Below, in pieces: positions 239-22,983 of a stretch of DNA of 64,000 nucleotides (its first letter is position 1; each line of letters begins with the position of its first letter). The stretch comes from an uncultured delta proteobacterium. GTDB lineage: Bacteria > Desulfobacterota > Binatia > UBA9968. Made by a program: the position numbers and the translations under genes. Under the pieces are notes generated by a model, which did no database searches, was not told where the DNA came from, and saw nothing but the letters and a program-made list of their open reading frames with translations. The DNA lies in contig CAWDPO010000038.1 in NCBI GenBank assembly GCA_963804165.1, positions 1-64,000 of the forward strand, read 5' to 3'.

Positions 239-1216
239 TCAGATAACGATGTTATCGAACGATTGCCTCACATCGAACTGCTTGGCTTTTGGATGTTCGA
301 CGGACTTAGTGCGTTGGTCATCGCTTTCTCCACGATGAACTGTGAAGCCAGAACTCGGGAAGGCCTCTTTGTAGAAATCGAAGGTGCCTTGCAGCAACGC
401 GTCATCGTCGGTTCGGGTAAATTTTCGCAGCGCGCGCTTGGTCGTCCGCGGCATTTTCCCTGGCGTATCTGTTGTCCTTCGTGGAGAGCGCGCAAGAAAA
501 ACTCATGGACCTTGGCGATTTTTGGGTTCCTTGAGCCAGGACTCGCGCGCTCCGATGACGGCTTTGGAAAGAGGCCGTATTCAGTCTGCGAAGGGCGGAA
601 CAGCAGATTGAATCCCGCGTTCTTGGCGCTGAGCCCGAAAGGGTACCCGATCATGCAGACATCGACGCGGCCGCCGACGAGGGCGGCATAGGATTCGCCA
701 ACGCCGCCATTCTGGATGAACGTGACTTCGGTCGGCTTCACCCCGCCCGACTCAACATGGACAGCGCCGAGAAGTAGCTGGAAGCGCCGAAGCGGGTTAC
801 ACCGCATTCTCTTGAGTCTCTCACGACGGATCGTACTCGATTCGGGCTTCGACCAACCATCGATTGTGAGGACGGGCAAGGGCGAGGCGATGGTCGATCA
901 GACTGCATTCACCGCTGAAGCCTGCTGGCGATGATCGCGCCGCCGCCGGTGTAGCCGATGGGAAATTCTCCGGCGAATATTGCCGAAATGAATTAGTGTG
1001 GAGCCGCCCATAAATACAGGGAAAAATATCGTAGCCGTGTTTCTGAAAAATTTTCTCTTCAACGCCAATGTACAGCGGGATCGCCGCGCCCCCGATGGGC
1101 GTGTAGCCGACGGTGAATTTTTGTAAATCCTTTTGCGCTGCTTGTGCGTAGACGCTTAGAAATGATGCAATGACGAGGAAGGTTGCAAACCACCAATGTG
1201 GATCTCTCGCTTTCAT
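239..1216 (-). pseudogene. NMT1/THI5-like (NitT/TauT) ABC substrate-binding protein, frameshifted (or sequencing indels); array cargo
   Basis: Signal peptide plus VGYTPIGGAAIPLYIGVEEKIFQKHG, then ESYAALVGGRVD and ALRKFTRTDDDALLQGTFDFY in different frames (ORFs 821..1216, 268..879, 239..454). Confidence 0.7.
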
Positions 1217-1237
1217 GGTAATCCTCCCGTGCCTAAA

Positions 1238-1334
1238 ATTTTGGATTTGCGGACGAAGATTTCGAACGAAATAGCTTCATAGAGTCGGGTCTCCTGGCTT
1301 TCAATCCAAAATCTAAAATCGAGAATCTAAAATA
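1238..1334. repeat. AATCYAA-heptamer leader element
   Basis: aatccaaaatctaaaatcgagaatctaaaat directly after the SBP stop at 1335, with a weak opposite arm attttggattt at about 1239. Confidence 0.7.
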
Positions 1335-2321
1335 TCATCTGATGACTTTGTCTGCTCTGGCCAGCACGTTCGGCGGGATCCGTGAGACCGATTTGCTTGG
1401 CTGTCTTCAGATTGATCATGAATTCAAACTTGGTCGGCTGCTCGACGGGCAGCTCGGCCGGTTTCGTACCCTTAAGTATCCTGTCAACGTAGAGGCGGCT
1501 CGGCGGAAACTTCAATATCATCGGCTGAATAAAATATCAGACCCCGGCCTGTACAAAATCACTGGGTTCGCACATTGATGGCAGTCTATTCTTGATGGCA
1601 AGGTCTGCAATTCGCCGCATGTTTCGAATGAGTACGAAACTCCTAATCGGAATGATCGCACCGGCACGCTCCTTAGCCGCGGTGTGAAATGCGCGTTCGA
1701 AATCAAGGTTCAGGGCGCGCAGCTCCAGGGATTGAAGATTTATCTTCAGCAACCGGGCAGTAGCCTCATACTCTTTAAAAGCAATAGTCGGCCCTGGTCC
1801 GTTCGCATCCCAGAGGACTCCGACGCGCGATACTTTCGGAACCACCTCCTTGAGCAGTTCCATCGTTTTCCGATTAGGTCGCGGGTGAGTCTGGTGAGCC
1901 CCGTGATATTTCCCCCAGGTCGCGCCAGGCTATCGATGAGCCCAGTCGCGACCGGATCCTGAACTGTCACCATGACAACAGGAATCGTCTTGGTCGCTTG
2001 CTTGGCTGCGAGGATCCCTCCTGTAGCTTGGGAGACAAGGATATCTACCTTGAGTTGCACCAGTTCGGTCACAAGGCTTGGGATACGGTCCGGCTTTCCT
2101 TCAGCAGAGCGAAACTCAATCACGATGTTTTTCCCCTCAACATAACCGAGATTCCGCAACCCCTGCCGGAATGCCTCAAGGTTCGGTGAGGGAGAAGAGA
2201 GATCGCCAGTTACTGTTACGTATCCTATCCGCGGAGCTTTCGTTGGCTGTTGCGCCTCGACAGAAAAGCAGAGCGCAAAGAGCATGGCGCAAAGAGTAAG
2301 GGCCGTGATTTTTTTCTTCAT
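1335..2321 (-). pseudogene. ABC_sub_bind-family SBP, array copy, 2 frameshifts
   Basis: ORFs 1746..2321, 1537..1863 and 1327..1521 together give signal-AQQ, DPVATGLIDSLARPGGNITG and [10 protein letters not shown]. Confidence 0.85.
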
Positions 2322-2368
2322 GTCTTTTTTCTGTCTCGATTGACTTGCGACGTGACACTAACCCCGTC

Positions 2369-3442
2369 TCACTTGATCACCTTATCCGCCCGGTACAGCA
2401 CGTTCGGCGGAACTGTCAGGCGGATCTGCTTGGCCGCCTTAAGGTTGATCACGAGCTCGAACTTTATCGGTGCTTCCACCGGCAGGTCAGCCGGCTTCGT
2501 GCCCCTTAGGATCTTGTCAACGTACGTCGCGGCCCGCCTGTGCATGCCCGAGTAGCTTGGCCCATAGGACATCAAGCCACCCGCCTCGACCAACTCCACA
2601 TAAGCATGCACGCCTGGTAAGTGGTTTTGGGTGGCGAAGTCCATGATGCGCACGCGGTGGTGCAGGAACAGTCGGTCTGCTAACACGAGGAGCGCACCTG
2701 GTCGTTCTCTGAGAATTGTCGCAAATGCATTGTCGAACTGCTCCTCGGCTTGCACCCCCAGCGACAGCACTTTTATTTTCATTGCATGAGCAGCCGCCTG
2801 TGTCTCCTTTTCCCCCGCCACCTGCAAGGGGCTGGTGGGATTCCAGAGCACCGCAACGTGCGAGATTTTAGGGACCACTTCCCTGAGCAACTCCAACCGC
2901 TTCCCGTCTAGCTCCGGTGAGATCGAGGTCAACCCGGTGAGGTTTCCACCAGGGTGGGCGAGACTCGCGATGAGGCCCGACCCCACGGGGTCCCCGACGG
3001 CGATCATGACAAGGGGCAGCGTCGTTGTCGCCTGCTTGAGAGCGATCGTGGCGGGTGTGCCGGCGGTAACGATCAGTTCGACCTTCGAGGCGATCAGCTC
3101 CGCGATGAGGGCAGGAAAGCGCTCGTACTTTCCTTCCGCCCATCGCCACTCAATGACGATGTTTTTACCCTCGACATAGCCAACGTCATGCAACCCTTCG
3201 CGAAAGGGCCCGATCAGATTTGCCTCCAGGGCAGCGGTAGAGTTTCCCAGGAAACCGATCCGGGGGACCTTCCCTTTCTGCTGCGCCTCAGCCGTTCCCA
3301 CACACCCCACGAGCAGGACGAGGATTAGAAGAAACCCCACCCATTTTAGATTTTGGATACTTCGACTCAGCTCAGTACAGGTTTTAGATTTCCGATTATC
3401 AGAGCGAGAATTTGGAGATCGCATCCAGGTTTTCTCATACAT
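2369..3442 (-). CDS. ABC_sub_bind-family SBP, array copy
   Basis: Signal peptide-AEAQQ, DPVGSGLIASLAHPGGNLTG, GGLMSYG, PPNVLYRADKVIK. Confidence 0.92.
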   Translation of the reverse strand: MYEKTWMRSPNSRSDNRKSKTCTELSRSIQNLKWVGFLLILVLLVGCVGTAEAQQKGKVPRIGFLGNSTAALEANLIGPFREGLHDVGYVEGKNIVIEWRWAEGKYERFPALIAELIASKVELIVTAGTPATIALKQATTTLPLVMIAVGDPVGSGLIASLAHPGGNLTGLTSISPELDGKRLELLREVVPKISHVAVLWNPTSPLQVAGEKETQAAAHAMKIKVLSLGVQAEEQFDNAFATILRERPGALLVLADRLFLHHRVRIMDFATQNHLPGVHAYVELVEAGGLMSYGPSYSGMHRRAATYVDKILRGTKPADLPVEAPIKFELVINLKAAKQIRLTVPPNVLYRADKVIK

Positions 3443-3488
3443 TTGTTTTTCTCCTCAATCTAAAATCGGCAATCGAAAATCTAAAATA
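3342..3488. repeat. AATCYAA-heptamer inverted repeat leader with REP-like insert (3360-3381)
   Basis: attttagattttggat[acttcgactcagctcagtacagg]ttttagatttccgatt faces aatctaaaatcggcaatcgaaaatctaaaat. Confidence 0.8.
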
Positions 3489-4472
3489 TCATCTGATGAC
3501 TTTGTCCGCTCTGGCCAGCACATTCGGCGGAATCGTCAGTCCGATCTGCTTGGCGGTTTTGAGATTGATGATCAGGTCGAATTTTACGGGCCGCTCGACA
3601 GGCAGATCGGCCGGCTTGGTACCCTTGAGGATTTTATCGACAAAGGTCGCGGCGCGCCTATACATATCCGCATCATTTGGTCCGTAAACCATCAGGCCGC
3701 CGGCTTCGGCAAATGGAATTTGCCCATGGATTGTTGCGAAGCGGTTCTTGATGGCGAGGTCTGCCACTCGCGTTCGGTGCGTGAAAGTGACCGGATCACC
3801 GATAGTCATGAGGGCTCCGACGCTGTTCTTTTTTGCTGCCTGAAATATATTGTCTAGATCGTTGGGTCCACGTATTTCCAAAACTTGAATTTTTAACGCT
3901 AGCGACTGCGCCGCAAGTTCGGCATCTTTCAATGCGTCCGCGGTGCCCAACATGCCGGGGTTGCGAAGAACCGCGACGCGGGAGAGCCTGGGAATCGCTT
4001 CTTTGAGCAGCTCCAGACGTTTGCCATTTAACTCTTCGGCGTTGGAAGTGAGGCCCGTAATGTTGCCCCCTGGCCGGGCCAAACTTGCGACCAACCCGGT
4101 TCGAACTGGGTCGGCTTCATACGCGAGAACAATGGGAATTGTTCCAGCAGCTTCTTTTGCTGGACGCGTCGCAAGGGGACCTCCCGTAACGATGACATCG
4201 ACTCTGAGCCGAGCCAGTTCTTTGGCGAATTCACGAAGTCGGTCGAGGTTGTCTTCAGCATAGCGATACTCTACGAGGATGTTTTGGCCTTCAGTGTAGC
4301 CTTGCTCGCGCAAACCTTGCCGAAACGCTTCGACTCGACCTAACATGGAAGCGGCCGAACCCACTGACAGAAAACCTATTCGTGGAACTTTTTTTCGCTG
4401 CTGCGCCTCAACTGCAAAGCAAAGCGCCAAGAGCACAGCGTTGAGAGTCAACCCAAAAATCTTTTTCTTCAT
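3489..4472 (-). CDS. ABC_sub_bind-family SBP, array copy
   Basis: Family motifs SLARPGGNITG and PADLPVERP...[13 protein letters not shown]. Confidence 0.92.
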   Translation of the reverse strand: MKKKIFGLTLNAVLLALCFAVEAQQRKKVPRIGFLSVGSAASMLGRVEAFRQGLREQGYTEGQNILVEYRYAEDNLDRLREFAKELARLRVDVIVTGGPLATRPAKEAAGTIPIVLAYEADPVRTGLVASLARPGGNITGLTSNAEELNGKRLELLKEAIPRLSRVAVLRNPGMLGTADALKDAELAAQSLALKIQVLEIRGPNDLDNIFQAAKKNSVGALMTIGDPVTFTHRTRVADLAIKNRFATIHGQIPFAEAGGLMVYGPNDADMYRRAATFVDKILKGTKPADLPVERPVKFDLIINLKTAKQIGLTIPPNVLARADKVIR

Positions 4473-4509
4473 CCTTTTTCTCTCACGCCTTCCGCCTCAC
4501 TCATCACGC

Positions 4510-5544
4510 CTATCGAATCACCTTATCCGCTCTCGCCAGCACATTCGGCGGGATCGTAAGGCCGATCTGTTTGGCCGTCTTTAGGTTGATGACGAACTCA
4601 AACTTTGTCGGTTGCTCTACCGGCAAGTCCGCGGGCTTCGTCCCTTTGAGAATCTTGTCAACGTAAGTAGCGGCGCGCCGGTTCAAGTCGGTAAAGCTCA
4701 CGCCGTAGCTCATAAGCCCCGCGTCTTCCACCCATTCCGGCGCGTAGTATATCGCCGGGAGTCGACTCTTTATCGCGAGGCCCGCAATCTGCTTTCGCTG
4801 AGAATTGAGGACGAAGCTCTGGAGCAGGAGGACGGCGTCAGCACGCTCCTTGCTTGCGGCTCGGAATGCCGTTTCAATTTCCTTGGGGCCGAGTATGTCC
4901 AAAAATTGCAGCTTCGCACCGAACAGTCCTGCGGCGCGTTCCATCTCTCTTAACGCTTGCGCGGTGCCTGGCACGGTCGAAGTCCCGAGGACGGCCAAGC
5001 GCGAAAGCCTGGGAACGGTCTCCTTCAGAAGTTCCAGTCGTTTTCCGCTGATGTCCACAGAAAGGCTTGACAAGCCGGTAATGTTCCCGCCCGGTCGCGC
5101 CAGACTGGCGACGAACCCGCTTCCGACAGGATCAATATCCTGCGCCATGACAATCGGAATCGTATTCGTCGATTCCTTGGCCACACGGGTTGGTGACGCA
5201 CCAGTCGTCACGACGATATCTACCTTGAGACGCACCAGTTCGGCCGCGAGCGCAGGGAGACGATCGACTTTACCCTCAGCCGATTTCCATTCAATGACGA
5301 TGTTCTTGCCGTCGATGTAGCCAAGCTCGCGCAGGCCTTGACGGAACGCTTCGGTGCGATCTGTGATAGCGGAAATGGAGGAGCCAGTTAGGTATCCTAT
5401 CCGGGGAGTTTTTGCCGACTGCGCCTGAGCCACGTCCCCAGCCACCACGAGCACGAAAGCGATTGCAAAAAGTCCCAGCCATTTTGGATTTTGGATTGCC
5501 GGTTTTCGATCGTCGGAAAGAGACCTCGAAGGAAAAGCGTTCAT
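4510..5544 (-). CDS. ABC_sub_bind-family SBP, array copy
   Basis: Family motifs DPVGSGFVASLARPGGNITG and [18 protein letters not shown]. Confidence 0.92.
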   Translation of the reverse strand: MNAFPSRSLSDDRKPAIQNPKWLGLFAIAFVLVVAGDVAQAQSAKTPRIGYLTGSSISAITDRTEAFRQGLRELGYIDGKNIVIEWKSAEGKVDRLPALAAELVRLKVDIVVTTGASPTRVAKESTNTIPIVMAQDIDPVGSGFVASLARPGGNITGLSSLSVDISGKRLELLKETVPRLSRLAVLGTSTVPGTAQALREMERAAGLFGAKLQFLDILGPKEIETAFRAASKERADAVLLLQSFVLNSQRKQIAGLAIKSRLPAIYYAPEWVEDAGLMSYGVSFTDLNRRAATYVDKILKGTKPADLPVEQPTKFEFVINLKTAKQIGLTIPPNVLARADKVIR

Positions 5545-5620: not shown

Positions 5621-6741
5621 TTATTTGATCACCTTGTTCGCCCGGAAGAGGACCGATTGTGGAATGGTTAAGTTGAGCGCTTTTGCTGGTTTGAGATTGA
5701 TGACGAACTCGAACTTCGTCGGCTGCTCCACGGGAGATCGGCGGGCTTAGCGCCTTTCAGTATTTTATCCACGTACGTTGCGGCGCGGCGAAATATCTCA
5801 AGATCGTTGGCTGAATAGGACATCAGTCCGCCGTTCTCAACCCAGGTGCTGCCCTCGTACATCGAAGGCAGGCGGTTCTTTATCGCCAGATCCGCGATCC
5901 TCTTCGAATTACGAAAAAGCGGGGTATTCGTAATCGTGATCACCGCGTTCGCGCGCCCGTTGACCGCTTCTCTAAACGCGCCCTGCAAATCCGGATTCGG
6001 ACCGCGCACGTCTAGGGATTGAATCCGTATCTTGAGAGAGCGCGCCGCAGTTTCATACTCTTTGAATCCAATGGCCGATATCGACCTATTCGTATCCCGA
6101 AGGATTCCGACGCGCGCCAACCCCGGAACCACTTCCGCAAGCAACTCCAGCCGCTTGCCGCTCAAGTCGCGCTGCAGTGTGGCAAGCCCCGTGATATTTC
6201 CACCTGGATGCGCCAGGCTAGCGACTAGTCCAGTCGCGACTGGATCTACCTGAGTCACCATGACAATGGGGATCGTCTTGGTGACCTGTTTGGCAGCGAG
6301 GATCGCGGATACAAGCGGGAGCACGAGAACATCGACCTTGAGTTGGACGAGTTCGGCGACGATGCCTGGGATCGACTCCTCTTTTCCCTCAGCGCCGCGA
6401 AACTCGATCACGAAATGTTTCTCCTCGACGTAACCGAGATCTCGCAGCCCTTGCCGCAACGCCGCGACGTACGGTCCAGGATTGGAAGCGTTGCCGGTTC
6501 CTGACAAGTAACCTATCCGCGCGATCCTCGCCGGCTGTTGCGCCTGAGCCACAGCCCCGCACAGCGCGAATGTGAAACCGAGAGCAACGATCCCCACCAA
6601 TTTTCGATTTTGGATCCTTCGACGTCGCTCAGTACAGGTTTTGGATTTCCGATTATCGGAGTGAGAGAAATCAAGCCGAATTCCAAATTTCCCTTGCATT
6701 TGTTTTTCTCCGTAATCCAAAATCGGCAATCTAAAATCCAA
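5621..6741 (-). pseudogene. ABC_sub_bind-family SBP, array copy, one frameshift near the C-terminus
   Basis: ORF 5668..6741 is normal up to PADLP. The tail PQSVLFRANKVIK* continues in another frame to the stop at 5621-5623. Confidence 0.85.
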
Positions 6742-6743
6742 AA
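6600..6743. repeat. AATCYAA-heptamer inverted repeat leader with REP-like insert (6616-6638)
   Basis: ttttcgattttggat[ccttcgacgtcgctcagtacagg]ttttggatttccgatt faces aatccaaaatcggcaatctaaaatccaaaat. Confidence 0.8.
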
Positions 6744-6960
6744 TTATTTAATGACCCTGTCCGCTCTCGCCAGCACGTTGGGCGGAATCGTCAGTCCGAT
6801 TTGCTTTGCGGCTTTGAGATTAATTATAAATTCGAACCTCGTCGGCTGCTCGACGGGCAGGTCGGCGGGAGATCGGCGGGCTTGGCGCCTTTGAGAATCT
6901 TGTCCACATAGTACGCGACGCGCTGGTATTGATCGTCGTCCGCCGTGTAGGACATAAGCG
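6744..6960 (-). pseudogene. Orphan 3' tail of an SBP gene (no 5' part) after the TA-like cargo
   Basis: Translates as [29 protein letters not shown]...[38 protein letters not shown], with a short internal duplication near 6870. Confidence 0.85.
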
Positions 6961-6974
6961 AGGCAAGTTTTCAG

Positions 6975-7436
6975 CTAGGATTTAGTTTGATCTCGGTCTT
7001 TGCGCTTCAACGCTTCGACGTCCGCCAAGTCTTGCGTCCGCGCAGCGGCGAGTTTGTTCTTAATCAAGTGTTCTCTGGAGAGCACCGTGACCGGTTGATC
7101 GGCGAATTTCGAAATCACCCGCTCTACCCAGGCTTCGTCGAACTGGACACCGTCGATCGCGGTCAAGACATCGATGCGTATAGGTTCCACCCCGATCTGG
7201 AAAATGAGGCCGGGTGTCGAAAGGTCTTTTTCCGTTAGGTCATGCAACGGTGCGCCGAAGGTGCGTAGTGCTTCGATGACTCGCTTCGCGTTTTCTGCCG
7301 AAGGACGCACCCAAATGTCGAGGTCCTGGGTGGCGCGGACATGGCCGTGCGCGGCCAAGGCGTGAGCGCCGACCAAGAGAAATTCAACTTGTCGGGCGTT
7401 GAATTCTGCTAATAGATCTCTGAAGTCTTGGTTCAT
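6975..7436 (-). CDS. Nucleotidyltransferase-fold protein (DUF6036-like), putative TA component
   Basis: FLLVGAHALAAHGHVRATQDLD (G..A...HG..R.T.DLD motif) and C-terminal NKLAAARTQDLADVEAL. Confidence 0.8.
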   Translation of the reverse strand: MNQDFRDLLAEFNARQVEFLLVGAHALAAHGHVRATQDLDIWVRPSAENAKRVIEALRTFGAPLHDLTEKDLSTPGLIFQIGVEPIRIDVLTAIDGVQFDEAWVERVISKFADQPVTVLSREHLIKNKLAAARTQDLADVEALKRKDRDQTKS

Positions 7437-7599
7437 GGGCTTGGTTCGGTTGCCAAGCTAGGCAGAGCAGGGTCAATTCCCAAACAGCGTTCAGCCGCTC
7501 TTCGGGCGTAGCGGTGTCCCAATATTGCTGGTCGGGAACGGGGTCCCCGGGTCGGATAATGCGGCTAGTGATATGCTTGCGTTCGGCCGGATGGTCCAT
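7384..7599 (-). CDS. Small partner protein of the nucleotidyltransferase (antitoxin-like)
   Basis: 71 aa with YWDTATPEERLNAVWEL...EPRLQR, overlapping the downstream gene in a typical two-gene module arrangement. Confidence 0.65.
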   Translation of the reverse strand: MDHPAERKHITSRIIRPGDPVPDQQYWDTATPEERLNAVWELTLLCLAWQPNQAHEPRLQRSISRIQRPTS

Positions 7600-7618
7600 A
7601 CAGTGACTTTATAACACA
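7600..7618 (-). promoter_or_regulatory. Extended -10 (TGnTATAAA), probably leaderless promoter
   Basis: Minus strand GTGTTATAAA-GTCACTGT-ATG. The -10 box is 8 nt from the ATG and there is no RBS. Confidence 0.45.
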
Positions 7619-7661
7619 TTCCAAAGAACACTTCTGCTTGTCGTTTTCGCTCCCGCTTCTG

Positions 7662-8792
7662 TCATCGGATGACCCGATCCGCTCGCATCAGCACATTCGG
7701 CGGAATCGTCAGGCCGATCTGCTTGGCGGTTTTGAGATTGATGACGAACTCGAACTTCGTGGGACGCTCGACAGGCAGCTCGCCGGCGTTTGCTCCTTTG
7801 AGGATCTTGTCTACCAGGCGCGCGGCCTCGTGGGCGATCTGTGCGTCGCTCGCGCCGTAGCTGGCGAGCGCGTCCACGGTGCTGCCCATTCGCGCATGAA
7901 ATATTGCCGGGACGCGCTTTGCGTTGGTCAATCGGGTGATTTCGTCGTAGAAGCCGGTGGCAAAACCACCCGGAATGGAAAGATACGCGTCGACCTCCGC
8001 CATCACCTCTAGTCCTCGCAGCAACTCTTCTCGTCCGCGCGCCTCACGCTCGACAAGCGTTATCCCGAGACTCGGCGCCGCCTGGCGCGCTGCCATGATT
8101 CCTTGTCGGGGTGAAGGATCTCTCGGATCGTAGATGGCGAGGACGCGGCGCACCTTGGGCGCGATCTCTTTGATGAGCTCAAGGCGTTTGCCCGAAAGCT
8201 CAGGATATTCGAATGTCATGGCGGTTGTGTTGCCGCCCGGACGGGCGAGGCTTTGGACTAAACCGGCGGCAACCGGATCGCCCGGCGTGAGGAAAACAAC
8301 CGGCACCTCAGCCGATGCCTCTCGGACCGGCTTGAGGAGTCTAGAGCCGATCAAGAACAGGACCTGTGCTTGCTGCCGCAGCAACCCTTCCACGATGGAC
8401 TTCGCGCTTTTTTCTTCCGATCTCGCGATCTTTACTTCCTGAACGACAAGCGACGGTGTGGCGTAACCGAGCTCGCCAAGACCGTTTTTGAGACCCGCCC
8501 CGATCTCTGAGAATCTCGGCTCCTCGGGAGCGCCGATGATTGCGATCCGGCGCTCCTTCGCTTGCTGCGCATGCACGAGATCGCAAAGGGCAAAGAGCAT
8601 GGCGCATAACATGATCGCGGATTTCACATTGCGGAGTGCGGATTTCAGTTGAATGCTGAAGTAAGATGGAAATTGATCGGAAGATATTTTGCTCATGACT
8701 CTTGCTCTATTTGCAAAATCCGGAAGCAACCCACGTTTTCCCTCGGTCCGGTTCTTACAATCCGAAATCCGCATTCCCCAATCCGAATTCAT
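7662..8792 (-). CDS. ABC_sub_bind-family SBP, divergent array copy
   Basis: DPVAAGLVQSLARPGGNTT and PVERPTKFEF...PPNVLMRADRVIR. The start overlaps the upstream stop (ATGA); the true start may be further in. Confidence 0.9.
   Translation of the reverse strand: MNSDWGMRISDCKNRTEGKRGLLPDFANRARVMSKISSDQFPSYFSIQLKSALRNVKSAIMLCAMLFALCDLVHAQQAKERRIAIIGAPEEPRFSEIGAGLKNGLGELGYATPSLVVQEVKIARSEEKSAKSIVEGLLRQQAQVLFLIGSRLLKPVREASAEVPVVFLTPGDPVAAGLVQSLARPGGNTTAMTFEYPELSGKRLELIKEIAPKVRRVLAIYDPRDPSPRQGIMAARQAAPSLGITLVEREARGREELLRGLEVMAEVDAYLSIPGGFATGFYDEITRLTNAKRVPAIFHARMGSTVDALASYGASDAQIAHEAARLVDKILKGANAGELPVERPTKFEFVINLKTAKQIGLTIPPNVLMRADRVIR
8629..8790. repeat. AATCCGM-heptamer inverted repeat leader
   Basis: ttgcggagtgcggattt faces aatccgaaatccgcattccccaatccgaat. 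Confidence 0.7.
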
Positions 8793-9838
8793 TTGATGAC
8801 GCGGTCCGCCCGGAACAGCACCGACTGTGGTATCGTCACGCCGATCTGCTTGGCGCTCTTGAGATTGATCACGAACTCGAACTTCTTCGGCTGCTCCACC
8901 GGTAAATCAGCTGGCTTGGTACCTTTTAGAATTTTATCAACGTAAACAGCGGCGCGGCGGTGCAAGTCGACGTAGTCTGTCCCATAGGACATAAGCCCAC
9001 CTGCTTCCGTCCACTCGCTGTCTCCATACATCGCCGGCAGCCGGCTCTTTGCCGTGAGATCTACAAAACGCTTTCTGTGGAGGATTAGAGCAGGGCCTGG
9101 CGGGATAATCAGAGCACTAGCACGTTCACCCTTTGCGGTTCTGAATACGCCGTCTAAATCCGGATTGGGACCTCGTATCTCAAGAGACACAACTTTGACG
9201 CCTAAACCATCTGCCGCCAGCTTTGTTTCTTGCAAAACCTCAGACATCTGTTGTTGAGCTGCAAGCGCCCCATCGATAAACACTGCCACTCGCGAAATCT
9301 TGGGAACCGACTCCTTCAAGAGTTCTAGTCTTTTGCCGCTTAGCTGTGGTGAAATTTGCGTCAATCCAGTGATGTTTCCACCTGGCTTCGCCAGACTGGC
9401 AGCAAACCTTGGAACAGCATCACCAACAAGCGTCATGACCAGGGGGATTGTCCTGGTGGCTTGCTGCGCAGCTTGAGTACCTGGGCTTCCCCCTGTCACA
9501 ATGACATCGACCTTGAGCCGGACCAGCTCGGCCGCAAGGTCGGGGAACCGATCAAGCTTTCCTTCCGCAAATCGAGACTCAATGACAATGGTTTTTCCGT
9601 CCACGTATCCCAAGTCGCGCAGACCTTGTCGGAATCCGTCGAAACGAGATGATTCAGCAGAAGGGGAGACGGCTGATAAATAACCTATCCGGGGAACTTT
9701 TCCTTGCTGCTGTGCCTCGGCGAGAGAAATAGTTGCCAGAAAGAAAGCTGTCAGTAGCCAGATAAAGATTTTTCCGCTCATCGGTTTCGCTCCCATCATT
9801 TTGCTGACGACTGATAACTGACCACTGACAACTGTCAT
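8789..9838 (-). CDS. ABC_sub_bind-family SBP, array copy
   Basis: Family motifs and tail PQSVLFRADRVIK. N-terminus MTVVSGQLSVVS is read from ACTGA-heptamer repeats. Confidence 0.92.
   Translation of the reverse strand: MTVVSGQLSVVSKMMGAKPMSGKIFIWLLTAFFLATISLAEAQQQGKVPRIGYLSAVSPSAESSRFDGFRQGLRDLGYVDGKTIVIESRFAEGKLDRFPDLAAELVRLKVDVIVTGGSPGTQAAQQATRTIPLVMTLVGDAVPRFAASLAKPGGNITGLTQISPQLSGKRLELLKESVPKISRVAVFIDGALAAQQQMSEVLQETKLAADGLGVKVVSLEIRGPNPDLDGVFRTAKGERASALIIPPGPALILHRKRFVDLTAKSRLPAMYGDSEWTEAGGLMSYGTDYVDLHRRAAVYVDKILKGTKPADLPVEQPKKFEFVINLKSAKQIGVTIPQSVLFRADRVIK
9804..9838. repeat. ACTGAYA-type heptamer repeat leader (also at 25019-25051 and 28145-28179)
   Basis: ctgacgactgataactgaccactgacaactgtcat. 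Confidence 0.75.
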
Positions 9839-9995
9839 CTGATCACTCTGGGTCCGCCCTTGCCAGCACGTTCGGCGGAATCGTGAGGCTGATCTGTTTG
9901 GCGGTTTTTAGATTGACGATGAATTCGAATTTCATGGGTTGCTCGACGGGCAGATCGGCGGGCTTGTCACCTTTTGGAATTTTGTGCATATAGTC
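9835..9995 (-). pseudogene. Orphan SBP 3' tail after TenA cargo
   Basis: Translates as [47 protein letters not shown](frameshift)RVIR*. Confidence 0.85.
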
Positions 9996-10027
9996 GTAAA
10001 CGGCTCGTACCGTTCCGGCCGCTCGCG

Positions 10028-10696
10028 TTAAGAACTAGAGGTCCTGTAGAGCGTATCCCAGTACATGAGCTCGTAGGCCTGGAGTAACCGGGCCGCGCGT
10101 TGGATCAGCCGCGGCTCGGTGCCGCGATCGAGCCCTTGCTGAATAACGCTCAGGGCGTTGGCTTCAAACGTAGCTGGAGGGGAGGCAAAGAGATCGAAAA
10201 AAGCGACCTCCTTCTCGGCCAGACCGAAACGCTCTTTCAAGATACGGCTTAGCCGGCCACAGTTTTGACCCCACGCGGGAAAATTGATCAGGTAGGCAGC
10301 GGCAATCTCGGTGTCAGAGGCATAAAGCGCAAGCGACGCCATGTAGCAGGTGTAGGCGTGAGCGCCGGGCAGTGGCTCGTGCTCGCGCAGTTGAGTTTCG
10401 CTTAGGCCGAGGGCATGGGCGAGCGTTAGCAGGGCATCCCAGGCAGCTCTTTCACCCTGTAGGATGCCAAGAAAAAAATCACGGCTCGGCGCGCTACCGA
10501 AACGGCTAACCAGATACGCGACGCTTTTGAGATCACTGGCTATAGTGTTGTACTGCTCGCCGACGAAAAGACGGAGATTCTCCCGCCCGATCTTCCCTTC
10601 CTCCAGTGCCTGCACGTACGGATGGCGAAGAAGCTGTTCGGTGACGATCTGCAAATCTTGCCGGATCTCCTCTGACAGAGCCTTGGCATCGACCAT
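10028..10696 (-). CDS. TenA/thiaminase II-like (heme-oxygenase fold) protein; array cargo
   Basis: [26 protein letters not shown]-terminal YELMYW. RBS overlaps the upstream SBP stop. Confidence 0.8.
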
Positions 10697-10706
10697 GGCA
10701 CCCTCC

Positions 10707-11681
10707 TTACTTGATCACTTTATCCGCTCTCGCCAGCACGTTCGGCGAAATCGTCACGCCGATTTGCTGAGCCGTTTTAAGGTTGATAACTAACTCAAAT
10801 CTTATAGGAAGCTCGACTGGGAGATCAGCGGGCTTTGTGCCCTTTAGGATCTTGTCCACGTACACCGCAATTCGCCTGTATGATTCATCTCGGTTCGGCC
10901 CATAGGCCATGAGGCCACCGGCTTCCACAAACTCTTTCCAGCCGAGCATGCTCGGAAGTCGGCGCTTGGTGGCGAAGTCGATGATCCCCAGTCGATTAGC
11001 CAACGTTACGCCTTCGGGGAAAACTAGGAGACCATTGACGCTTTGCTTGCTTATGGCATCGTAGGCGGCGTCGAATTCGGCGCGCGTTCTTGTTTGATAG
11101 TAGTCGAGGGTCATTCCCATGGCTCGCGCGCTGCTTTGCGTTTCCCTCAATTCCCGTTGTTCACCTGGATGCTGGGGATTTGATAGAATGGCCACACGGG
11201 AGACCCGAGGCACGGCCTCTTTGAGAAGCTCCAGCCGTTTGCCGACAAGTTCAAATGACAGCCAGCTCATGCCCGTCATGTTTCCTCCCGGCCGCGCGAT
11301 GCTGTCGACAAAGCCGCTCTCAACCGGCTCGCCGCTCGTAGCGAAAACAATCGGAATCGTCTTGGTTGCGTCTTTAGCAGATCGAGCTGCTGGCCCGCCA
11401 CTCGCTACGATCACTTCAACCTTCTCTCGGACTAGCTCATTGGCGAGCTCAAGCAGCCGTGGTCTACCCTCGGCGGACCGGTACTCAATGACAATGTCAT
11501 GCCCCTCCGCATAGCCAAGCTCACGCAGACTTCGCCGGATTACCTCATGGGCCCCCGTGGGGCCGCCTGACGCGCCGAGAAACCCTATCTTTCGAACTGT
11601 CGGTGACTTTTGGGCTTCGGCCGGATGAAATGAAAACAGCACCAACGTTGCGAAGAGAGAAACGATGGGCATCATTTTCAT
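10707..11681 (-). CDS. ABC_sub_bind-family SBP, array copy
   Basis: [31 protein letters not shown]. Confidence 0.92.
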   Translation of the reverse strand: MKMMPIVSLFATLVLFSFHPAEAQKSPTVRKIGFLGASGGPTGAHEVIRRSLRELGYAEGHDIVIEYRSAEGRPRLLELANELVREKVEVIVASGGPAARSAKDATKTIPIVFATSGEPVESGFVDSIARPGGNMTGMSWLSFELVGKRLELLKEAVPRVSRVAILSNPQHPGEQRELRETQSSARAMGMTLDYYQTRTRAEFDAAYDAISKQSVNGLLVFPEGVTLANRLGIIDFATKRRLPSMLGWKEFVEAGGLMAYGPNRDESYRRIAVYVDKILKGTKPADLPVELPIRFELVINLKTAQQIGVTISPNVLARADKVIK

Positions 11682-11727
11682 GGCTTCCTCTCCCTAAATC
11701 TGAAATCGAAAATCGGAAATCCAAAAT

Positions 11728-12714
11728 TCACTTTATGACTTTATCCGCCCGCATCAGCACGTTGGGCGGGACTGTCAGACCGATCTGCTTGGCAGTTTTG
11801 AGATTAACGATGAAATCGAATTTTTTCGGCTGCTCGACGGGAAGATCGGCGGGCTTGGCGCCTTTCAGGATTTTGTCGACATAAGTGGCGGCGCGATGAA
11901 ACAAGGCGGGGAGGGATACGCCATAGGACATGAGTCCCCCCGCCTCTGCGGATTCGCTGTCATTGTACATCGTGGGCAGCCGCTTCTTCTCCGCGAATTC
12001 AATGATGCGCTTCCGGTACACACTCGCCAGCCCAGCCGGTACAAAAACAGCCCCAGCGCGGCTCTTGATCGCTAACTCCAGGGCATTATCGACGTCGGTG
12101 GAATTTCGAACCTCGAGCGATTGAATCTGCAGGCGTAATGTTTGGCCGACAGCTTCCAAGTTTTTCAATCGACTGGCCATGCCCGCATTATCCGGATCCC
12201 AAAGGAATGCGACGCGCGTGAGCTTGGGCAGCGCTTCCTGGAGAATTTCCAACGCCTTTCCGTCTGAGTCGGGTCCAAGCATAGACAGACCTGTGACCGT
12301 ACCACCGGGCCGTGCCAGGCTAGCGACCAATCCTGTGCCAACGGGATCGGCGCTGGCGGCCATGACAATCGGGATCGTTCTGGTTGCTCGGAGCACTGCT
12401 TCAGCCACCGGCGTGGTCGATGTCACGATGATGTCCACTTTCAACCGTACTAAATCAGCGGCGAGATCTGGGAGACGATCGCTCTTGCCGTCGGCGAAGC
12501 GCCATTCAATCGCAATGTTTTGTCCCTCGGTATAACCGAGGTCACGTAGTCCATTTTGAAATGCCTCAATGCGGACCGCGTAGGTGGCCCGGGAGCCGGG
12601 CATCAAAAAGCCAATCCGCGGAGCCTTTTTCGGCTGCTGCGCGCGAACGGCAAAACCAGTAAGCAGAAGGACAGTAGGTAGTAGGCAGATAGAGACAAAA
12701 AACTTTCTGGTCAT
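11728..12714 (-). CDS. ABC_sub_bind-family SBP, array copy
   Basis: DPVGTGLVASLARPGGTVTG, PPNVLMRADKVIK. Confidence 0.92.
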   Translation of the reverse strand: MTRKFFVSICLLPTVLLLTGFAVRAQQPKKAPRIGFLMPGSRATYAVRIEAFQNGLRDLGYTEGQNIAIEWRFADGKSDRLPDLAADLVRLKVDIIVTSTTPVAEAVLRATRTIPIVMAASADPVGTGLVASLARPGGTVTGLSMLGPDSDGKALEILQEALPKLTRVAFLWDPDNAGMASRLKNLEAVGQTLRLQIQSLEVRNSTDVDNALELAIKSRAGAVFVPAGLASVYRKRIIEFAEKKRLPTMYNDSESAEAGGLMSYGVSLPALFHRAATYVDKILKGAKPADLPVEQPKKFDFIVNLKTAKQIGLTVPPNVLMRADKVIK

Positions 12715-12747
12715 CGTCTTCCCCCTTTCTCTTGCTGCTACTTCCCT

Positions 12748-12860
12748 TCACTAATGATTTTATCCGCTCGCCAGAAACATTCGGCGGCGGGGGATCCTCA
12801 TCGCGAGCGCTTAGAGGCATTCAGAGTGATTGAAAAGTCGAAGTTCGTAGGCTCTGTTGT
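12748..12860 (-). pseudogene. Highly decayed orphan SBP 3' tail after hydrolase cargo
   Basis: Minus strand reads EPTNFDFSITLNASK (compare [16 protein letters not shown]), then CCGCCGAATGTTTCTGGCGAGCGGATAAAATCATTAGTGA. Confidence 0.7.
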
Positions 12861-12905
12861 TTCAAGATCGTCTGCGGAATTACTTGGCGGTCGAGCGGCT
12901 ATGAA

Positions 12906-13949
12906 TCAGAGATTTGGCTCGTCGAGAAACAATTGAACTTCGCGAAAAAGCTGCATGCGATTCCTTTCCATGAACAGCAGATGAGTGCCCTCACCGATCT
13001 GAACCAGACGCTTGTGACTGGTGTTGCTGAGCTTGCCGAAAACGGTTTGCGCTGTTGCAACGTTGGCGTCCCATTCTCCGAGGACAATTAGCGTGGGAGC
13101 CTTGCTTTCGGACGGTTCCCATAAAGGCTTTCCGGCAAACCAGTAATCCGCTGTGTCCTGAACAGTGCCGGTGGGAGTGCGCACGACCGGCGGCGTCTGC
13201 TTGGCGCCGATCGGATCGGTGGCAAGCACGGCCGCAGACCACGCTTCGTACCATGTTGCCGGCATCAAATCCTTTTTCTTGGCTTCCGGAGCGCCGGCTT
13301 GGAGCCGAGTTTTCGCTTGCTCCATCGTCCATGCTTGATAAGCTCCCAGCTTGGCCGGGCTGCTGGTCGTTGGCGCTTTACGTACCCAAGGGGGCGCGTA
13401 GAGGACTAGGCGATTCACCTTGTCGCTATTTTGCGCGGCGTACCGGCCAATAATTGCGGTACCCCAAGACCAGCCCATTAAGTTGAGTTTCGTCACTCCG
13501 CGCCGCGTCATTATATGATCGACCGCAGCCGCTACATCCCTTGCGGCGACATCGGTCCTGACGATCGGTGGGTTTTCCGCGGCCGGCTTAGCCATTTCCG
13601 GGGGCCGCGTGGAACGGCCATACCCTCGTAGATCGACAAGATAAACGTCGTAGCCATGGCGCGCGATGTGATCCATCCACGAGAGACCGTCCAACGGTAA
13701 ATCGAAGGTAGTGCTTGCCGCCTGAGTCGTGCCGTGCACATAAAGTAGCGTTTTGTCGCCGCTGAATTGGGTCATGCTCTCAGGGCGTTTGTTTCTCACG
13801 TACAATTGAATTCCCGGATCGCGCGATTGGATCATATAACTTTCTGTAACGAGCTTGAATTCCTCTGGAGGGGAAATTCCGGCGCAACCCACTGTAGTTA
13901 TGAAACACAAGATAGCCAGCAGACTTGTATGAAGGTGAATCATTTTCAT
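12906..13949 (-). CDS. Alpha/beta hydrolase, probably an exported lipoprotein; array cargo
   Basis: LLYVHG, DLRGYGRS, GWSWG nucleophile elbow, GEGTH, and N-terminal hydrophobic stretch ending TVGC. Confidence 0.88.
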   Translation of the reverse strand: MKMIHLHTSLLAILCFITTVGCAGISPPEEFKLVTESYMIQSRDPGIQLYVRNKRPESMTQFSGDKTLLYVHGTTQAASTTFDLPLDGLSWMDHIARHGYDVYLVDLRGYGRSTRPPEMAKPAAENPPIVRTDVAARDVAAAVDHIMTRRGVTKLNLMGWSWGTAIIGRYAAQNSDKVNRLVLYAPPWVRKAPTTSSPAKLGAYQAWTMEQAKTRLQAGAPEAKKKDLMPATWYEAWSAAVLATDPIGAKQTPPVVRTPTGTVQDTADYWFAGKPLWEPSESKAPTLIVLGEWDANVATAQTVFGKLSNTSHKRLVQIGEGTHLLFMERNRMQLFREVQLFLDEPNL

Positions 13950-15044: not shown

Positions 15045-16316
15045 TTACTTGCTTATGCCGACCTTGCGGATAGACACGTCAGGCTGTGCTGCCAGATTGG
15101 TGGTCGGTTTTAAAAAGTTTTGTACCGTGTATTCGCCGATCTTGCGGCCCATCGCCGCGCCGGCTTCGCCGGATGTGCGGTAGTGTACGCCGTCGTATAC
15201 GCGGGCGTTGACGACTTCGGCAATGTAGTCGGAGAGTTTGTTAAAGCTCCGCGTCACTCCCTGCGCCGTGGTGCTGGTCAATTTAAAAGTGGCGGCGTCG
15301 CTGCCAAAGAATGTGCGCAGAACACTGGCAGCGGTAGACTGAAAGGTGCAGTGAGCGCATGGGTACTCCGGATGCATTGGCGTTCTAATAAACGGTTCCC
15401 AACTTGGATCGCGATCGGTGGCGTTATTGCCGTCCAGATCACCATTGCGGATCGCCGTGACCGGGCGCCAGAAATTGTATTTGTACTTGGCGTCGAAGAT
15501 CGCGACGCCCGCGTCTGACGCGGCCATCGAAAAAAGCGCGAAGAGGCGGGCATTGTCCAACAGATCAAGCCCTATTGCCGCTGAGAGCTGGCGCGCGATA
15601 GGGTTATACGTAGCCGGTCCCACCAACTCCCAAAAGCGCGCGATCTCGGTCTGCTCCCCGGTACGCGCCGAGCCGGTCTTCGCGCCCATCTTCTTAACTT
15701 CGGCGTAATCCTTTGCCCATTGCATGCTGGTGAGCGTATAGGGGGCTGTCGGGCGGAACTGGTTTCCGCTCCTAAGTCCGAACGGTCGAACCATTCCCCA
15801 ACTCGACATCACGGGAAACTCAGTGGGGACGTACTTGCCGGCGGTAGTGAATGGGCGATAGGTATTGGGCGCGTCGGCGCCGTCCGCGCGACGTTCGTCG
15901 AGTATCGCGTGGGCGGCTCGGTCGCCGAGTCGCAATCCTTCCGCCTTGGGCGAACCGTCGGCTACGGCAGCGAGCGATGTCTCTAACGCTTTATCGAAGT
16001 CCTTTGCTTGTTCGGGGTAGGCCAGCACTAGGACGTGGTGTGCCGCGACTGCGGCTGCAGCCTCACGTGACACGTCGGGCTCCACCGAAAATCGCGTCCG
16101 ATAAGGCGTGTAGCGCGGCTCGATGGAATTAACCGCTTCGAACATGGCGATATGAACCATGGCGATGTTGCGTGAACTCATGCCGGGCGTGACCCGCGCC
16201 GCGTAGCCCGCACTCACCGCCTTTTCATTCCAGTCAGTTATGACATCTGCTCTCGCCAAGCTGATCGATCCAAGCAGCAATGACGCCACCAAAATGATCC
16301 ATGCTAAGTACTTCAT
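15045..16316 (-). CDS. Vanadium-dependent haloperoxidase-like PAP2-superfamily protein, secreted; array cargo
   Basis: Signal peptide-ARA-DVITDWN. PAP2 motifs KYKYNFWRP, HPEYPCAH and ARVYDGVHY. Confidence 0.85.
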   Translation of the reverse strand: MKYLAWIILVASLLLGSISLARADVITDWNEKAVSAGYAARVTPGMSSRNIAMVHIAMFEAVNSIEPRYTPYRTRFSVEPDVSREAAAAVAAHHVLVLAYPEQAKDFDKALETSLAAVADGSPKAEGLRLGDRAAHAILDERRADGADAPNTYRPFTTAGKYVPTEFPVMSSWGMVRPFGLRSGNQFRPTAPYTLTSMQWAKDYAEVKKMGAKTGSARTGEQTEIARFWELVGPATYNPIARQLSAAIGLDLLDNARLFALFSMAASDAGVAIFDAKYKYNFWRPVTAIRNGDLDGNNATDRDPSWEPFIRTPMHPEYPCAHCTFQSTAASVLRTFFGSDAATFKLTSTTAQGVTRSFNKLSDYIAEVVNARVYDGVHYRTSGEAGAAMGRKIGEYTVQNFLKPTTNLAAQPDVSIRKVGISK

Positions 16317-16638: not shown

Positions 16639-16680
16639 CTAACGAATCACTCTGTCCGCCCTTGCCAGCACATTCGGCGG
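16639..16680 (-). other. Minimal orphan SBP tail (42 bp, [13 protein letters not shown]) forming an 'empty' array unit
   Basis: CCGCCGAATGTGCTGGCAAGGGCGGACAGAGTGATTCGTTAG, preceded only by a heptamer leader arm (16690-16714). Confidence 0.85.
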
Positions 16681-16718
16681 ACTCTTCACATTTTAGATTT
16701 TGGATTTTTGATTGTCGG

Positions 16719-17750
16719 TCACCGGATTACTTTGTCTGCTCTGGCTAAAACGTTCGGCGGGATCGTGAGTCCGATCTGCTTCGCTGCTTTCAGATTGATC
16801 ACGAACTCGAACTTCATCGGCTGCTCGACGGGGAGATCGGCGGGCTTGGCGCCTTTGAGAATTTTGTCGACGTAAACGGCCGCGCGGCGATAGTTCTCAA
16901 GTTGATCTGCTGCATAGGACATCAGGCCGCCAGCGTTCACCCATGGGCTGAAGGGATAGATGGTAGGTAACCGTTTCTTCACAGTAAGCGTAACGATCCG
17001 TTGCCGGTTCGCATCGAAAAGCCCGGTCGGATCTGGTGTTAGTGTGAGAGCACCGACACGCGCATTGGCTGCTGTTTCGAATGCCCTTTCCAAATCGTCG
17101 GCAACCCGCACCTCCATGATGTGAAGCTGGATCTGCAGAGAAGGGGCCGCTGCCTGTATCTCCTTCAAGACCCGCGCGGAGCGTGGACTCGGGAGTACGG
17201 CTACGCGAGCGAGCTTGGGAAAGATCTCTTTGAGCAGCTCCAATCGTTTCACACCCAAATCCGTCGCAGCGTTGGTTAATCCGGTCACGTTCCCGCCCGG
17301 CCGCGCTAGACTGGCGACAAGGCCATTACTGACCGGATCGGCTCCATCGGCCATGACGATAGGGATTGTCTTCGTCGTGTTCGAGGCAGCACGCGCTACG
17401 CTATTATTTTGCACGACAATGATATCGACCTTGAGTCGAACCAACTCGGCTGCTAACTCCGGAAGGCGATCCGGATTGCCGTCCGCGTATCTATGCTCGA
17501 TTATGATGTTCTGCTCCTCGATGTAGCCCAGTTCGCGCAGCCCTCGGCGGAACGAATCGGTACGGTTCGATTGAGCGTCAGCGGTAGACGCCACAAGAAA
17601 TCCGATCCGCGGGACCTTTGTTGACTGCTGCGCCTGGGCGGATATGCAAAGCGTCGAGAGCAGAGCGCCAAGCGCGAGACCAAAGAATTTTCTTCTCATG
17701 GATGTACTCGAGTGTTCTTGCCGCTCCCTGCTCCTTGCCCTTTGCTCCAT
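16719..17750 (-). CDS. ABC_sub_bind-family SBP, array copy
   Basis: Family motifs. Leader MEQRARSRERQEH is read from TGCTCY repeats. Confidence 0.92.
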   Translation of the reverse strand: MEQRARSRERQEHSSTSMRRKFFGLALGALLSTLCISAQAQQSTKVPRIGFLVASTADAQSNRTDSFRRGLRELGYIEEQNIIIEHRYADGNPDRLPELAAELVRLKVDIIVVQNNSVARAASNTTKTIPIVMADGADPVSNGLVASLARPGGNVTGLTNAATDLGVKRLELLKEIFPKLARVAVLPSPRSARVLKEIQAAAPSLQIQLHIMEVRVADDLERAFETAANARVGALTLTPDPTGLFDANRQRIVTLTVKKRLPTIYPFSPWVNAGGLMSYAADQLENYRRAAVYVDKILKGAKPADLPVEQPMKFEFVINLKAAKQIGLTIPPNVLARADKVIR

Positions 17751-22943: not shown

Positions 22944-22983
22944 CTCTGTTCTCTATCTCGATTCACTTGATGCTCGCACCTTC

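Follow-up and report, generated by a model that had tools for sequence, protein, structure and literature searches.

Contig CAWDPO010000038.1 of the GenBank assembly GCA_963804165.1, from an uncultured delta proteobacterium of the Binatia (UBA9968), carries an array of substrate-binding protein (SBP) genes in which unrelated genes are followed by the 3′ end of an SBP gene that has lost its body, here termed an orphan tail. The window, the whole stretch of 64,000 nucleotides (nt) that was analysed, holds at positions 1–30200 a single co-oriented array on the minus strand, with ~25 SBP paralogs of the PF04392 (ABC_sub_bind) family and a few unrelated genes between them, and the genome to which it belongs (G000, with contigs numbered as C and the window on C38) contains ~150 diverged SBP genes in 7.5 Mb, four in ten of which are broken. 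Remnants that consist of the tail are far more frequent in this genome than remnants that consist of the head, and the joints of recently exchanged segments cluster in tails. With a probability of about one half, these tails are scars that recombination and deletion have left at the only homology patch of the family, rather than dedicated sites.

Orphan tails in the SBP array

Three orphan tails, all of them broken, lie behind genes foreign to the family, hereafter cargo, namely a toxin–antitoxin (TA)-like pair, a TenA-family gene and an alpha/beta hydrolase. The tails were delimited by nhmmer with a profile of the last 162 nt of the SBP gene, the starts of tails 1 and 3 being read by eye. Tail 1 (6744–6960, on the minus strand like all tails and genes given here by window position) runs from about codon 255 to the stop codon and contains a ~10-nt frame-shifting insertion (match at 6748–6918, model positions 2–161, E = 3.8e-42); tail 2 (9835–9995) runs from about codon 272 to a decayed end, the normal end having been lost (9839–9993, model 9–161, E = 3.8e-36); and tail 3 (12748–12880), the most decayed, runs from about codon 281 to the end with an in-frame stop (12751–12853, model 62–161, E = 1.1e-6). 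Tail 1 begins ~10 nt past the stop of the nucleotidyltransferase gene of the TA-like pair, and after it come a leader with heptamer repeats of type A and the SBP gene 5668–6741; the start codon of the SBP gene 8789–9838 overlaps the end of tail 2. Protein-level SBP matches were obtained at 6747–6964 and 9852–10013, and homology to the 3′ ends of complete members in both nucleotide and protein sequence identifies the orphans as remnants of PF04392 genes, the complete SBP neighbours scoring 112–203 bits on that family. A fourth orphan, a mini-tail made up of the last 45 nt of an SBP gene (16644–16688; model 116–160, E = 7.8e-6), stands not behind cargo but behind the complete SBP gene 16719–17750 and an A-rich leader piece, upstream of a PAP2/VCPO-like gene.

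The original prediction, made from the letters of the window, had placed such tails behind the TA-like pair, TenA and the hydrolase and had each cargo start 10–62 bp past the stop of the previous SBP gene; both statements agree with the nhmmer matches and with the measured spacers of 62 nt (TA pair), 10 nt (TenA) and 57 nt (hydrolase). Its claim that a 5′ remnant never occurs stands for coding heads and fails for leaders, which, as read by eye, remain before the TA pair and the hydrolase. Nor are the last ~40 bp of the most decayed copy its best-preserved part, as had been supposed, since tail 3 agrees with the consensus at 21/29, 22/36 and 26/38 positions in successive alignment segments. A caveat had named a haloperoxidase and an NMT1 gene as cargo without tails of their own; no match to the tail profile lies between 14990 and 15045, behind the PAP2/VCPO-like cargo, and no NMT1-family gene was present among the 13 window open reading frames (ORFs) scanned, a subset of all ORFs of the window.

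In four soil or sediment metagenome runs, contig depth peaks on SBP tails (window 6847–7093, 7588–7834, 8823–9069 and 11787–12033), with values of hundreds to thousands against <30 on bodies and cargo, and very many related tails must therefore be present in those communities.

Excess of 3′ remnants across the genome

A six-frame search of the genome with a profile of 13 window SBPs gave 158 loci, of which 69 are intact, 49 full-span but broken, 23 3′-only, 14 5′-only and three internal. Because recognition bias was to be removed, a second survey took six windows of 162 nt from a codon-aligned set of 66 intact genes, searched the genome by nhmmer with each and chained the hits; matches per profile numbered 135, 136, 136, 136, 134 and 157 from 5′ to 3′. 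The chained loci, in counts that rest on one profile family, comprise 119 complete genes, 20 tail-only, two head-only, one window-2-only and three window-4-only loci, longer pieces at the 3′ (12) or 5′ end (nine; four at contig ends) and seven forms with an internal gap and both ends kept. Two pairs of tail-only loci are mutual copies (C5:10341/C38:9839 and C5:12247/C12:63033), so that ~18 of the 20 are independent. In 20-kb pieces from other species, tail-only loci outnumber head-only loci by 7 to 1 (G004) and 4 to 1 (G003), in regions picked by hits of a tail query and thus in a sample that favours tails. Family tails were found in 11 of the 12 same-genus genomes searched, a tally that includes the unpublished G005. 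The one-sidedness on which the original prediction had staked itself is therefore present genome-wide (20 tail-only against 2 head-only), and so is the synonymous excess it had expected, in the last 18 codons.

The 20 orphans start at widely different positions of the model, namely 1, 2, 2, 8, 9, 9, 38, 39, 62, 79, 83, 85, 87, 102, 108, 108, 116, 118, 118 and 120. Eight orphans start at most 35 nt past the stop of a non-SBP ORF on the same strand, these ORFs being TenA (twice), the TA pair, the hydrolase, a BNR/sortilin-like gene, a DUF4440-like gene, a small ORF that adjoins a TIR-methyltransferase gene, and a class A penicillin-binding protein gene (PBP1A). Four others are mini-tails behind a complete SBP gene or another tail, each after an A-rich leader piece, and the remaining eight have neither context. 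The PBP1A gene lies outside the arrays and has its SBP tail piece 20 nt past the stop (C25:142282–142349); the piece covers codons ~298–321 in this genome and codons ~270–283, read by eye, in the closest relative (G024, locus L183), and no SBP sequence occurs in the available 58–1500 nt downstream of PBP1A in 11 other genomes. Since the pieces differ between lineages, remnants have been whittled differently in different lineages.

Such whittling also agrees with another, though rather unlikely, explanation, that of plain decay, in which recombination plays no role and a tail is the leftover of random deletion in a once complete SBP neighbour, the best conserved part being the easiest to recognise and outlasting the rest. 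In favour of decay, frameshifts or stops break 49 of the 118 full-span SBP loci of the genome, those in the array of the window being 1375–2327, 5624–6618, 18790–19713, 21952–22949, 22987–23965, 26106–27091 and 27141–28116, and the indels between duplicates on C38 and C37 lie outside homopolymers. Internal-deletion forms that keep both ends (111001 three times, 100001, 110011 and 111011 over the six windows) are present, the mini-tails behind complete SBPs follow a leader piece as they would after deletion of a whole body, two lineages retain different pieces of one tail behind PBP1A, and insertion sequences have cut genes on C5, C10 and C37 in two, leaving the 5′ and 3′ pieces of medium length found there. 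Random end points, however, predict that about one sixth of remnants should be tail-only, against the observed ratios of 20 to 2 over head-only loci and ~20 to 12 over longer 3′ fragments, and the bias of recognition at this length is small, as complete genes were recovered equally by all six profiles (134–136 each). The TenA unit described below, a copied block with both of its ends in tails, is likewise not expected from decay.

Recombination joints in tails

Among the 66 aligned genes, mean pairwise nucleotide identity is 0.49–0.57 in the body and 0.71–0.72 in the last 54 codons. RecA-type pairing needs ~20–30 nt of identity; for 3756 of 7003 pairs of paralogs the longest identical run is found in the tail, and runs of at least 20 nt occur in the tail in 17% of pairs, mostly at tail positions 108–135, as against 2–4% in any other window. 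These long identical runs are concentrated at the places of the joints. A segment of at least 96% identity is common to 11 pairs (eight distinct relations) drawn from the 119 complete genes, and all five relations with near-identical bodies lose their identity within the tail, which begins at nt 809 (at nt 816, 843, 855, 858 and 957 of 969). The left end in three of these five is at nt 76–78, in the poorly aligned signal-peptide part, and in one such pair that was checked on the raw DNA the identity continues into the leader. In the three other relations the body contains either a short internal patch or the end of a tract (nt 663; 373–646; 429–736). A unit that is 100% identical between C6, C37 and C38 starts in or beside the tail of the upstream gene, and a block common to C21 and C23 starts within a tail.

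Tails are also mosaic, in that the nearest relative changes from one third of a tail to another. The identity of the window's orphans to the tail of the gene upstream is 0.77, 0.73 and 0.68, which ranks 67th of 139, 88th of 139 and 25th of 143. Local, target-site-like duplication of the upstream tail was rejected as an origin because the orphan and the upstream tail are not specially alike.

A 4.5-kb segmental duplication relates window 250–4728 to C37:145494–149957 at 95.7% identity; its start, ~218 nt before the stop of the SBP gene 4510–5544, is counted among the joints in tails, and a 2.5-kb tract within it (C38 1863–4411) is 99.9% identical between flanks of ~88–90%, which looks like a recent conversion within an older duplication.

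Cargo genes and the units in which they travel

By Pfam, the non-SBP genes of the array are a DUF2204 nucleotidyltransferase with a 71-amino-acid (aa) ORF, a TENA_THI-4 gene, the alpha/beta hydrolase and the PAP2/VCPO-like gene. The first two form cargo 1 (6975–7599), a candidate type II/VII-like TA pair in which the nucleotidyltransferase matches PF09970 (29.1 bits against a cut-off of 20.3) and the 71-aa partner has no Pfam match. TenA is cargo 2 (10028–10696; PF03070, 71.5 bits), the hydrolase is cargo 3 (12906–13949), and the PAP2/VCPO-like cargo follows at 15045–16316. The 62-nt spacer before cargo 1 (7600–7661), compared by eye with other leaders, resembles the remnant of an SBP-unit leader ('gggagcgaaaacga...') and appears to include the first ~4–5 SBP codons; the hydrolase starts at the usual place of an SBP start and is preceded by a 57-nt leader of 'cgtgagg' heptamers. 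Both stretches, when compared by eye with other leaders, thus read as ordinary SBP-unit leaders, and the two cargos would therefore lie inside a gutted SBP unit made up of leader, cargo and tail.

TenA lies in a copied unit. It is present twice in the genome, on C38 (~9985–10750) and C5 (~10485–11250), at 95% identity or more over ~770 nt, and past both ends of the unit the identity falls to the paralog level of 65–78%. On its left the unit ends within the final ~45 nt of the SBP gene upstream, complete in the window at 10707–11681, and on its right ~25 nt into the orphan tail. TenA homologues (84–87% protein identity) occur in only four of 31 genus genomes, and in front of each of the six copies in those four genomes stand the last 22–45 nt and the stop of an SBP ORF, followed by a ribosome site, including copies with no SBP body in the vicinity. 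Downstream of the stop, both copies of G031 and that of G034 show the last ~33 nt of an SBP ORF after 2 nt. A Campbell-type circle of tail and TenA, inserted by two crossovers, was considered for the C38 and C5 copies and rejected, the reciprocal tail identity that it predicts being absent.

At the G031 and G034 copies (L004 on G031:C13, L006 on G031:C11 and L003 on G034:C36), direct repeats of the last ~30 nt of the SBP ORF bracket TenA, the downstream repeat being followed by an inverted-repeat element; L006 has no SBP body nearby.

The TA-like pair has close homologues in G031, G007, G029 and G032. Its unit (6968–7659) is present in G031, G007 and metagenome contigs, window 6968–7814 matches locus L158 at 84.5% (blastn), and the block held in common with G031 begins 7 nt past the end of the nucleotidyltransferase gene and takes in ~150 nt of tail from the SBP gene upstream, which is complete in the window (7662–8792). 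In several lineages the homology ends 4–8 nt past the stop codon, and contigs of two metagenome runs stop matching at 6974. On the 3′ side of the pair, G031 has a leader and a complete SBP gene and G007 unrelated non-SBP sequence, and the orphan tail is present in neither. Across genomes, the tail of the complete upstream SBP is thus conserved with the cargo and the orphan behind the cargo is not. No close homologue of the hydrolase is present in 30 genomes of the genus, where the best matches, confined to two genomes, are 31–33% identical.

Recombination and deletion as the proposed origin of orphan tails

In the explanation favoured here, the last ~160 nt would be the only stretch similar enough for RecA-type recombination between the ~150 diverged paralogs, and crossovers and conversion tracts would therefore begin and end there. 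Units and the genes embedded in them would be copied from tail to tail, the tails becoming mosaics near the family consensus as conversion homogenises them. Non-SBP genes would come to lie within gutted SBP units, as leader, foreign ORF and tail, by a first ORF-to-tail joint that may have arisen through illegitimate joining, deletion or one-sided recombination, and the cargo could then be copied to other arrays through its flanking tails, as TenA seems to have been. Any 5′ SBP coding remnant that separated the leader or ribosome site from the start of the cargo would be lost, probably because it hinders cargo expression, and the 3′ remnant, being neutral, would persist for a while, be trimmed by deletions and sometimes disappear altogether. 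The asymmetry, the joints clustered in tails, the mosaics, the shared cargo units and the lack of tails in relatives are observed, whereas homologous recombination as the agent, the origin of the first ORF-to-tail joints and selection for cargo expression are inferred.

Several observations weigh against this explanation. The assembly consists of 46 contigs (7.5 Mb), with an estimated completeness of 81% and contamination of 5%, and has redundant contig ends (C5/C41); the counts from G003 and G004 carry the bias of their sampling. Five mapped ends of recent shared segments lie in bodies (nt 663, 373/646 and 429/736), so that tails are preferred rather than exclusive. No orphan has a near-identical donor, the best whole-length identities being 0.72–0.88, and therefore no event has been caught in the act except that of TenA. 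The model also leaves unexplained why cargo homology stops 4–8 nt past the stop codon in several lineages and how at least eight different ORF-to-tail joints originated. Finally, synonymous codon identity, expressed as observed over expected from family codon usage, is 1.23 in codons 1–270, 1.19 in codons 271–288, 1.26 in codons 289–306 and 1.66 in codons 307–324. Codons 271–306, equally conserved, share none of the excess, a real effect that is limited to the final ~50 nt, the core; of the tail whose synonymous sites the original prediction had proposed to compare with the rest of the gene, codons 307–324 show the excess and the other codons do not. The codon choices of the core dominate also in G003 and G004 and partly in two genomes from another family of the order, and the excess could equally reflect selection on the DNA or RNA itself.

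The 45-nt core

Selection of that kind is central to an unlikely second alternative, in which the last ~45 nt (ATTCCGCCGAAYGTGCTGGCG...GCGGA) would form a boundary signal in DNA or RNA, such as a recombinase or regulator site, a Chi-like hotspot with GCTGGCG as its motif or a site of RNA processing, that the cargo needs. The synonymous excess and the recurrence of the same codon choices in G003 and G004 speak for it, as does isoleucine 311, encoded by ATT where the family elsewhere prefers ATC. None of the 20 orphans starts past model position 120, so that the core is kept in every one, although this lower limit of ~41 nt may be the limit of detection; four SBPs or tails with a degenerate core of their own are followed by a mini-tail with a good core, although these four cases may share one origin; and direct repeats of the last ~30 nt bracket TenA in G031 and G034. 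Against a selected element stand the absence of a consensus fold in 226 tails and of an Rfam match, the absence of solitary cores elsewhere in the genome and of an integron integrase, and the existence of cargo without any tail, namely the haloperoxidase-like gene and the TA pair in G031 and G007. The core is, moreover, no better kept in orphans than the rest of the tail, identities to the consensus in four successive segments being 0.79, 0.76, 0.77 and 0.78, as compared with 0.79, 0.82, 0.85 and 0.80 in complete genes, and special preservation of the core in orphans was accordingly set aside. In the favoured explanation gene conversion would account for at least part of the synonymous excess, the codon-level conservation of the core being only partly explained.

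Two more specific forms of the core were considered and rejected. An RNA hairpin (TCCGC...GCGGA) found no support in a consensus fold, as RNAalifold predicted no pairs on the 226 tails, or in the mean single-sequence z-score of −0.47, both obtained with parameters for RNA rather than single-stranded DNA; its 5-bp stem motif is intact in 77 of the 226 tails. Rfam gave no match in window 1–32000 at gathering scores and none in C21 or C12:46–66 kb at E ≤ 0.1. Nor is the core dispersed as a repeat: its 33-nt weight matrix has 151 matches of at least 14 bits in the genome and none in the reversed genome, and copies are confined to tails save for four weak matches.

An exact 21-nt core occurs in at least 107 stretches of public metagenome-assembled genome (MAG) records (L046–L125), many of them short contigs, under the labels Candidatus Binatia, uncultured delta proteobacterium, Pyrinomonadaceae, Blastocatellia, Udaeobacter, Syntrophobacteraceae and others. 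Its appearance in other phyla was judged uninformative, since chance codon matches in a huge family or mis-binned short contigs could yield such matches.

A related and similarly doubtful proposal is that the leader and the last ~160 nt would serve as portable homology arms of an integrase-free cassette system, the ORF between them being expressed from the signals of the unit and copied between arrays and genus genomes by homologous recombination, with the 45-nt core selected for exchange or as a hotspot. If this were true, the arrays would be a gene-capture platform, integron-like without integrase or attC.

Comparison with known systems

Integron cassettes resemble the SBP array in being co-oriented and tightly packed, with promoter-less foreign ORFs, TA genes and a repeat behind the ORFs. 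In contrast to integrons, however, the array has no integrase above the cut-off, no hairpin and no fixed boundary, and the repeat is the decaying coding end of a paralog; the tails thus lack the integrase, conserved hairpin and fixed recombination boundary that characterise attC sites. The best match to the integron-integrase model TIGR02249 in the genome reaches 104.9 bits against a cut-off of 265, sub-cut-off matches of this kind occur in all 14 control genomes as well, and none of the 30 lies on C38. The proposal in the original prediction that the tail is kept as an attC-like site finds no support, in view of 5′ ends scattered from position 1 to 120, the lack of fold and integrase, a core that is not favoured and the absence of the TA tail from G031 and G007. 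Its other suggestion, a homology handle, is partly borne out, being supported by the joints clustered in tails, the long identical runs and the TenA copy, as long as the handle is not taken for a site kept on purpose.

A multi-copy tyrosine recombinase of 284–310 aa, scoring ~100 bits on the integron-integrase model and hence far below its cut-off, is present at C5:4111–4908, C37:1802–2599, C18:37335–38144, C10:35735–36532 and C41:60032–60838, and on C23 within a 2.55-kb repeat (C23:251678–254230, repeated at C23:259569–262121). On C23 this repeat interrupts one copy of an inverted-repeat element directly behind an SBP gene. This ~70-nt element, 'type C', has arms GGATTGAACTGAATTCTCC ... GTCGTTCAGTTCAATC and an outer inverted pair, and is found on C5, C12, C21, C23, C8, C18 and C43, with no copy in window 1–32000. 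There are 76 matches to its 5′ arm, 32 of them with both arms, clustered and co-oriented within each contig, 25 lying behind an SBP tail and the rest behind other genes, and it has no Rfam match. Its identification as an integron attC was rejected, as on C21 it also stands behind opposite-strand genes and an IntI was not found.

Islands integrated at tRNA or protein genes (attL/attR) carry on their far side a partial copy of the 3′ end of the target, and the order of complete gene, foreign DNA and orphan copy of the gene's 3′ end is the same in the SBP array. Unlike such islands, the array of the window has no integrase beside it, its repeats vary in length and start, and the orphan is no copy of the upstream end, a ~30-nt direct repeat being found only at the TenA copies of G031 and G034. 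Parallels are also offered by the concerted evolution of multigene families, by the 'minimal mobile elements' of Neisseria and by silent pilS copies with a conserved 3′ repeat. In these gene-conversion systems, as in the SBP family, recombination is limited to the most similar segments, mosaics arise and truncated copies keep the 3′ segment; they serve antigenic variation or lie between housekeeping genes, whereas the SBP family comprises ~150 periplasmic proteins of an uncultured soil genus with no evident silent-cassette function.

[quoted passage not shown] In both cases recombination is anchored in the conserved stretch of a repeated gene, and in both displaced 3′ ends without 5′ parts pile up downstream with no need of a dedicated recombinase (PMC5361080). 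The polarity differs, Rhs/T6SS/CDI genes having a conserved 5′ part or core as anchor and a variable 3′ toxin tip (PMC5361080) and SBP genes a variable body and a conserved last 160 nt, and the SBP orphans, unlike those of Rhs/CDI, are the conserved part itself, have no evident function and are unrelated to the gene upstream.

Applied to the SBP array, such displacement would have an incoming tail with its cargo anchor in the resident tail and join illegitimately at its far end, so that the resident 3′ end is pushed downstream as an orphan. It predicts 3′ remnants only; the upstream anchor on the incoming module is indeed found, in all six TenA copies and in the ~150 nt of the TA block, and these shared units end abruptly on the right. 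The orphan, furthermore, always reaches its stop and is then followed by an ordinary leader, and a mechanism of this type is in print for analogous arrays (PMC5361080). Displacement is nevertheless quite improbable, as an orphan resembles the tail upstream no more than random pairs resemble each other, according to the ranks given above, although later conversion could have erased the signal, and as the leader remnants before the TA pair and the hydrolase place the cargo in a unit of its own.

That the cargo-to-tail joints are chimeric joins of the assembler, for which the contamination, the redundant contig ends and one contig with long homopolymer runs in a repeat-rich metagenome bin might be cited, is hardly credible, because the joints lie in unique sequence and not in shared k-mers, the TenA-to-tail 2 joint is present on two contigs and is bridged by contigs of the metagenome runs X1 and X6 from different studies, and tail-only loci occur also in G003 and G004.

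Spacers and other features of the arrays

The spacers between SBP genes, for example 3443–3488, 4473–4509, 6640–6743 and 9780–9838, are made up of several types of short, heptamer-like tandem repeat (gattttc/gattttag, cagtggt/cagttat, ggcgtga and gagcaaa). The 'gatttt' kind recurs in inverted form within the 5′ end of the next ORF, where it gives rise to odd N-terminal extensions ('...SDNRKSKTCTE...IQNLKW') and possibly to a stem around the ribosome site and start codon. On C12:63639–64121, long homopolymer runs that are read as poly-P/poly-F or poly-G ORFs are probably an artefact of assembly or sequencing. Searches of the literature for PF04392 paralogs and for substrate-binding proteins of Binatota found no description of such SBP arrays.

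Implications for the SBP family and its genus

For annotation, the tails call for caution, as they are read as small ORFs or as the N-terminal extension of the next gene. The interest of the case would rise if the 45-nt core were a signal under selection; on the present evidence, the tails appear to be an ordinary outcome of homologous recombination and deletion. What they would illustrate is how a huge paralog family shapes its own neighbourhood, one conserved stretch channelling recombination, shuffling units and leaving one-sided scars. Accessory genes such as TenA, toxin–antitoxin genes and hydrolases would thereby be carried between arrays, a simple, recombinase-free form of cassette-like mobility in uncultured soil bacteria.

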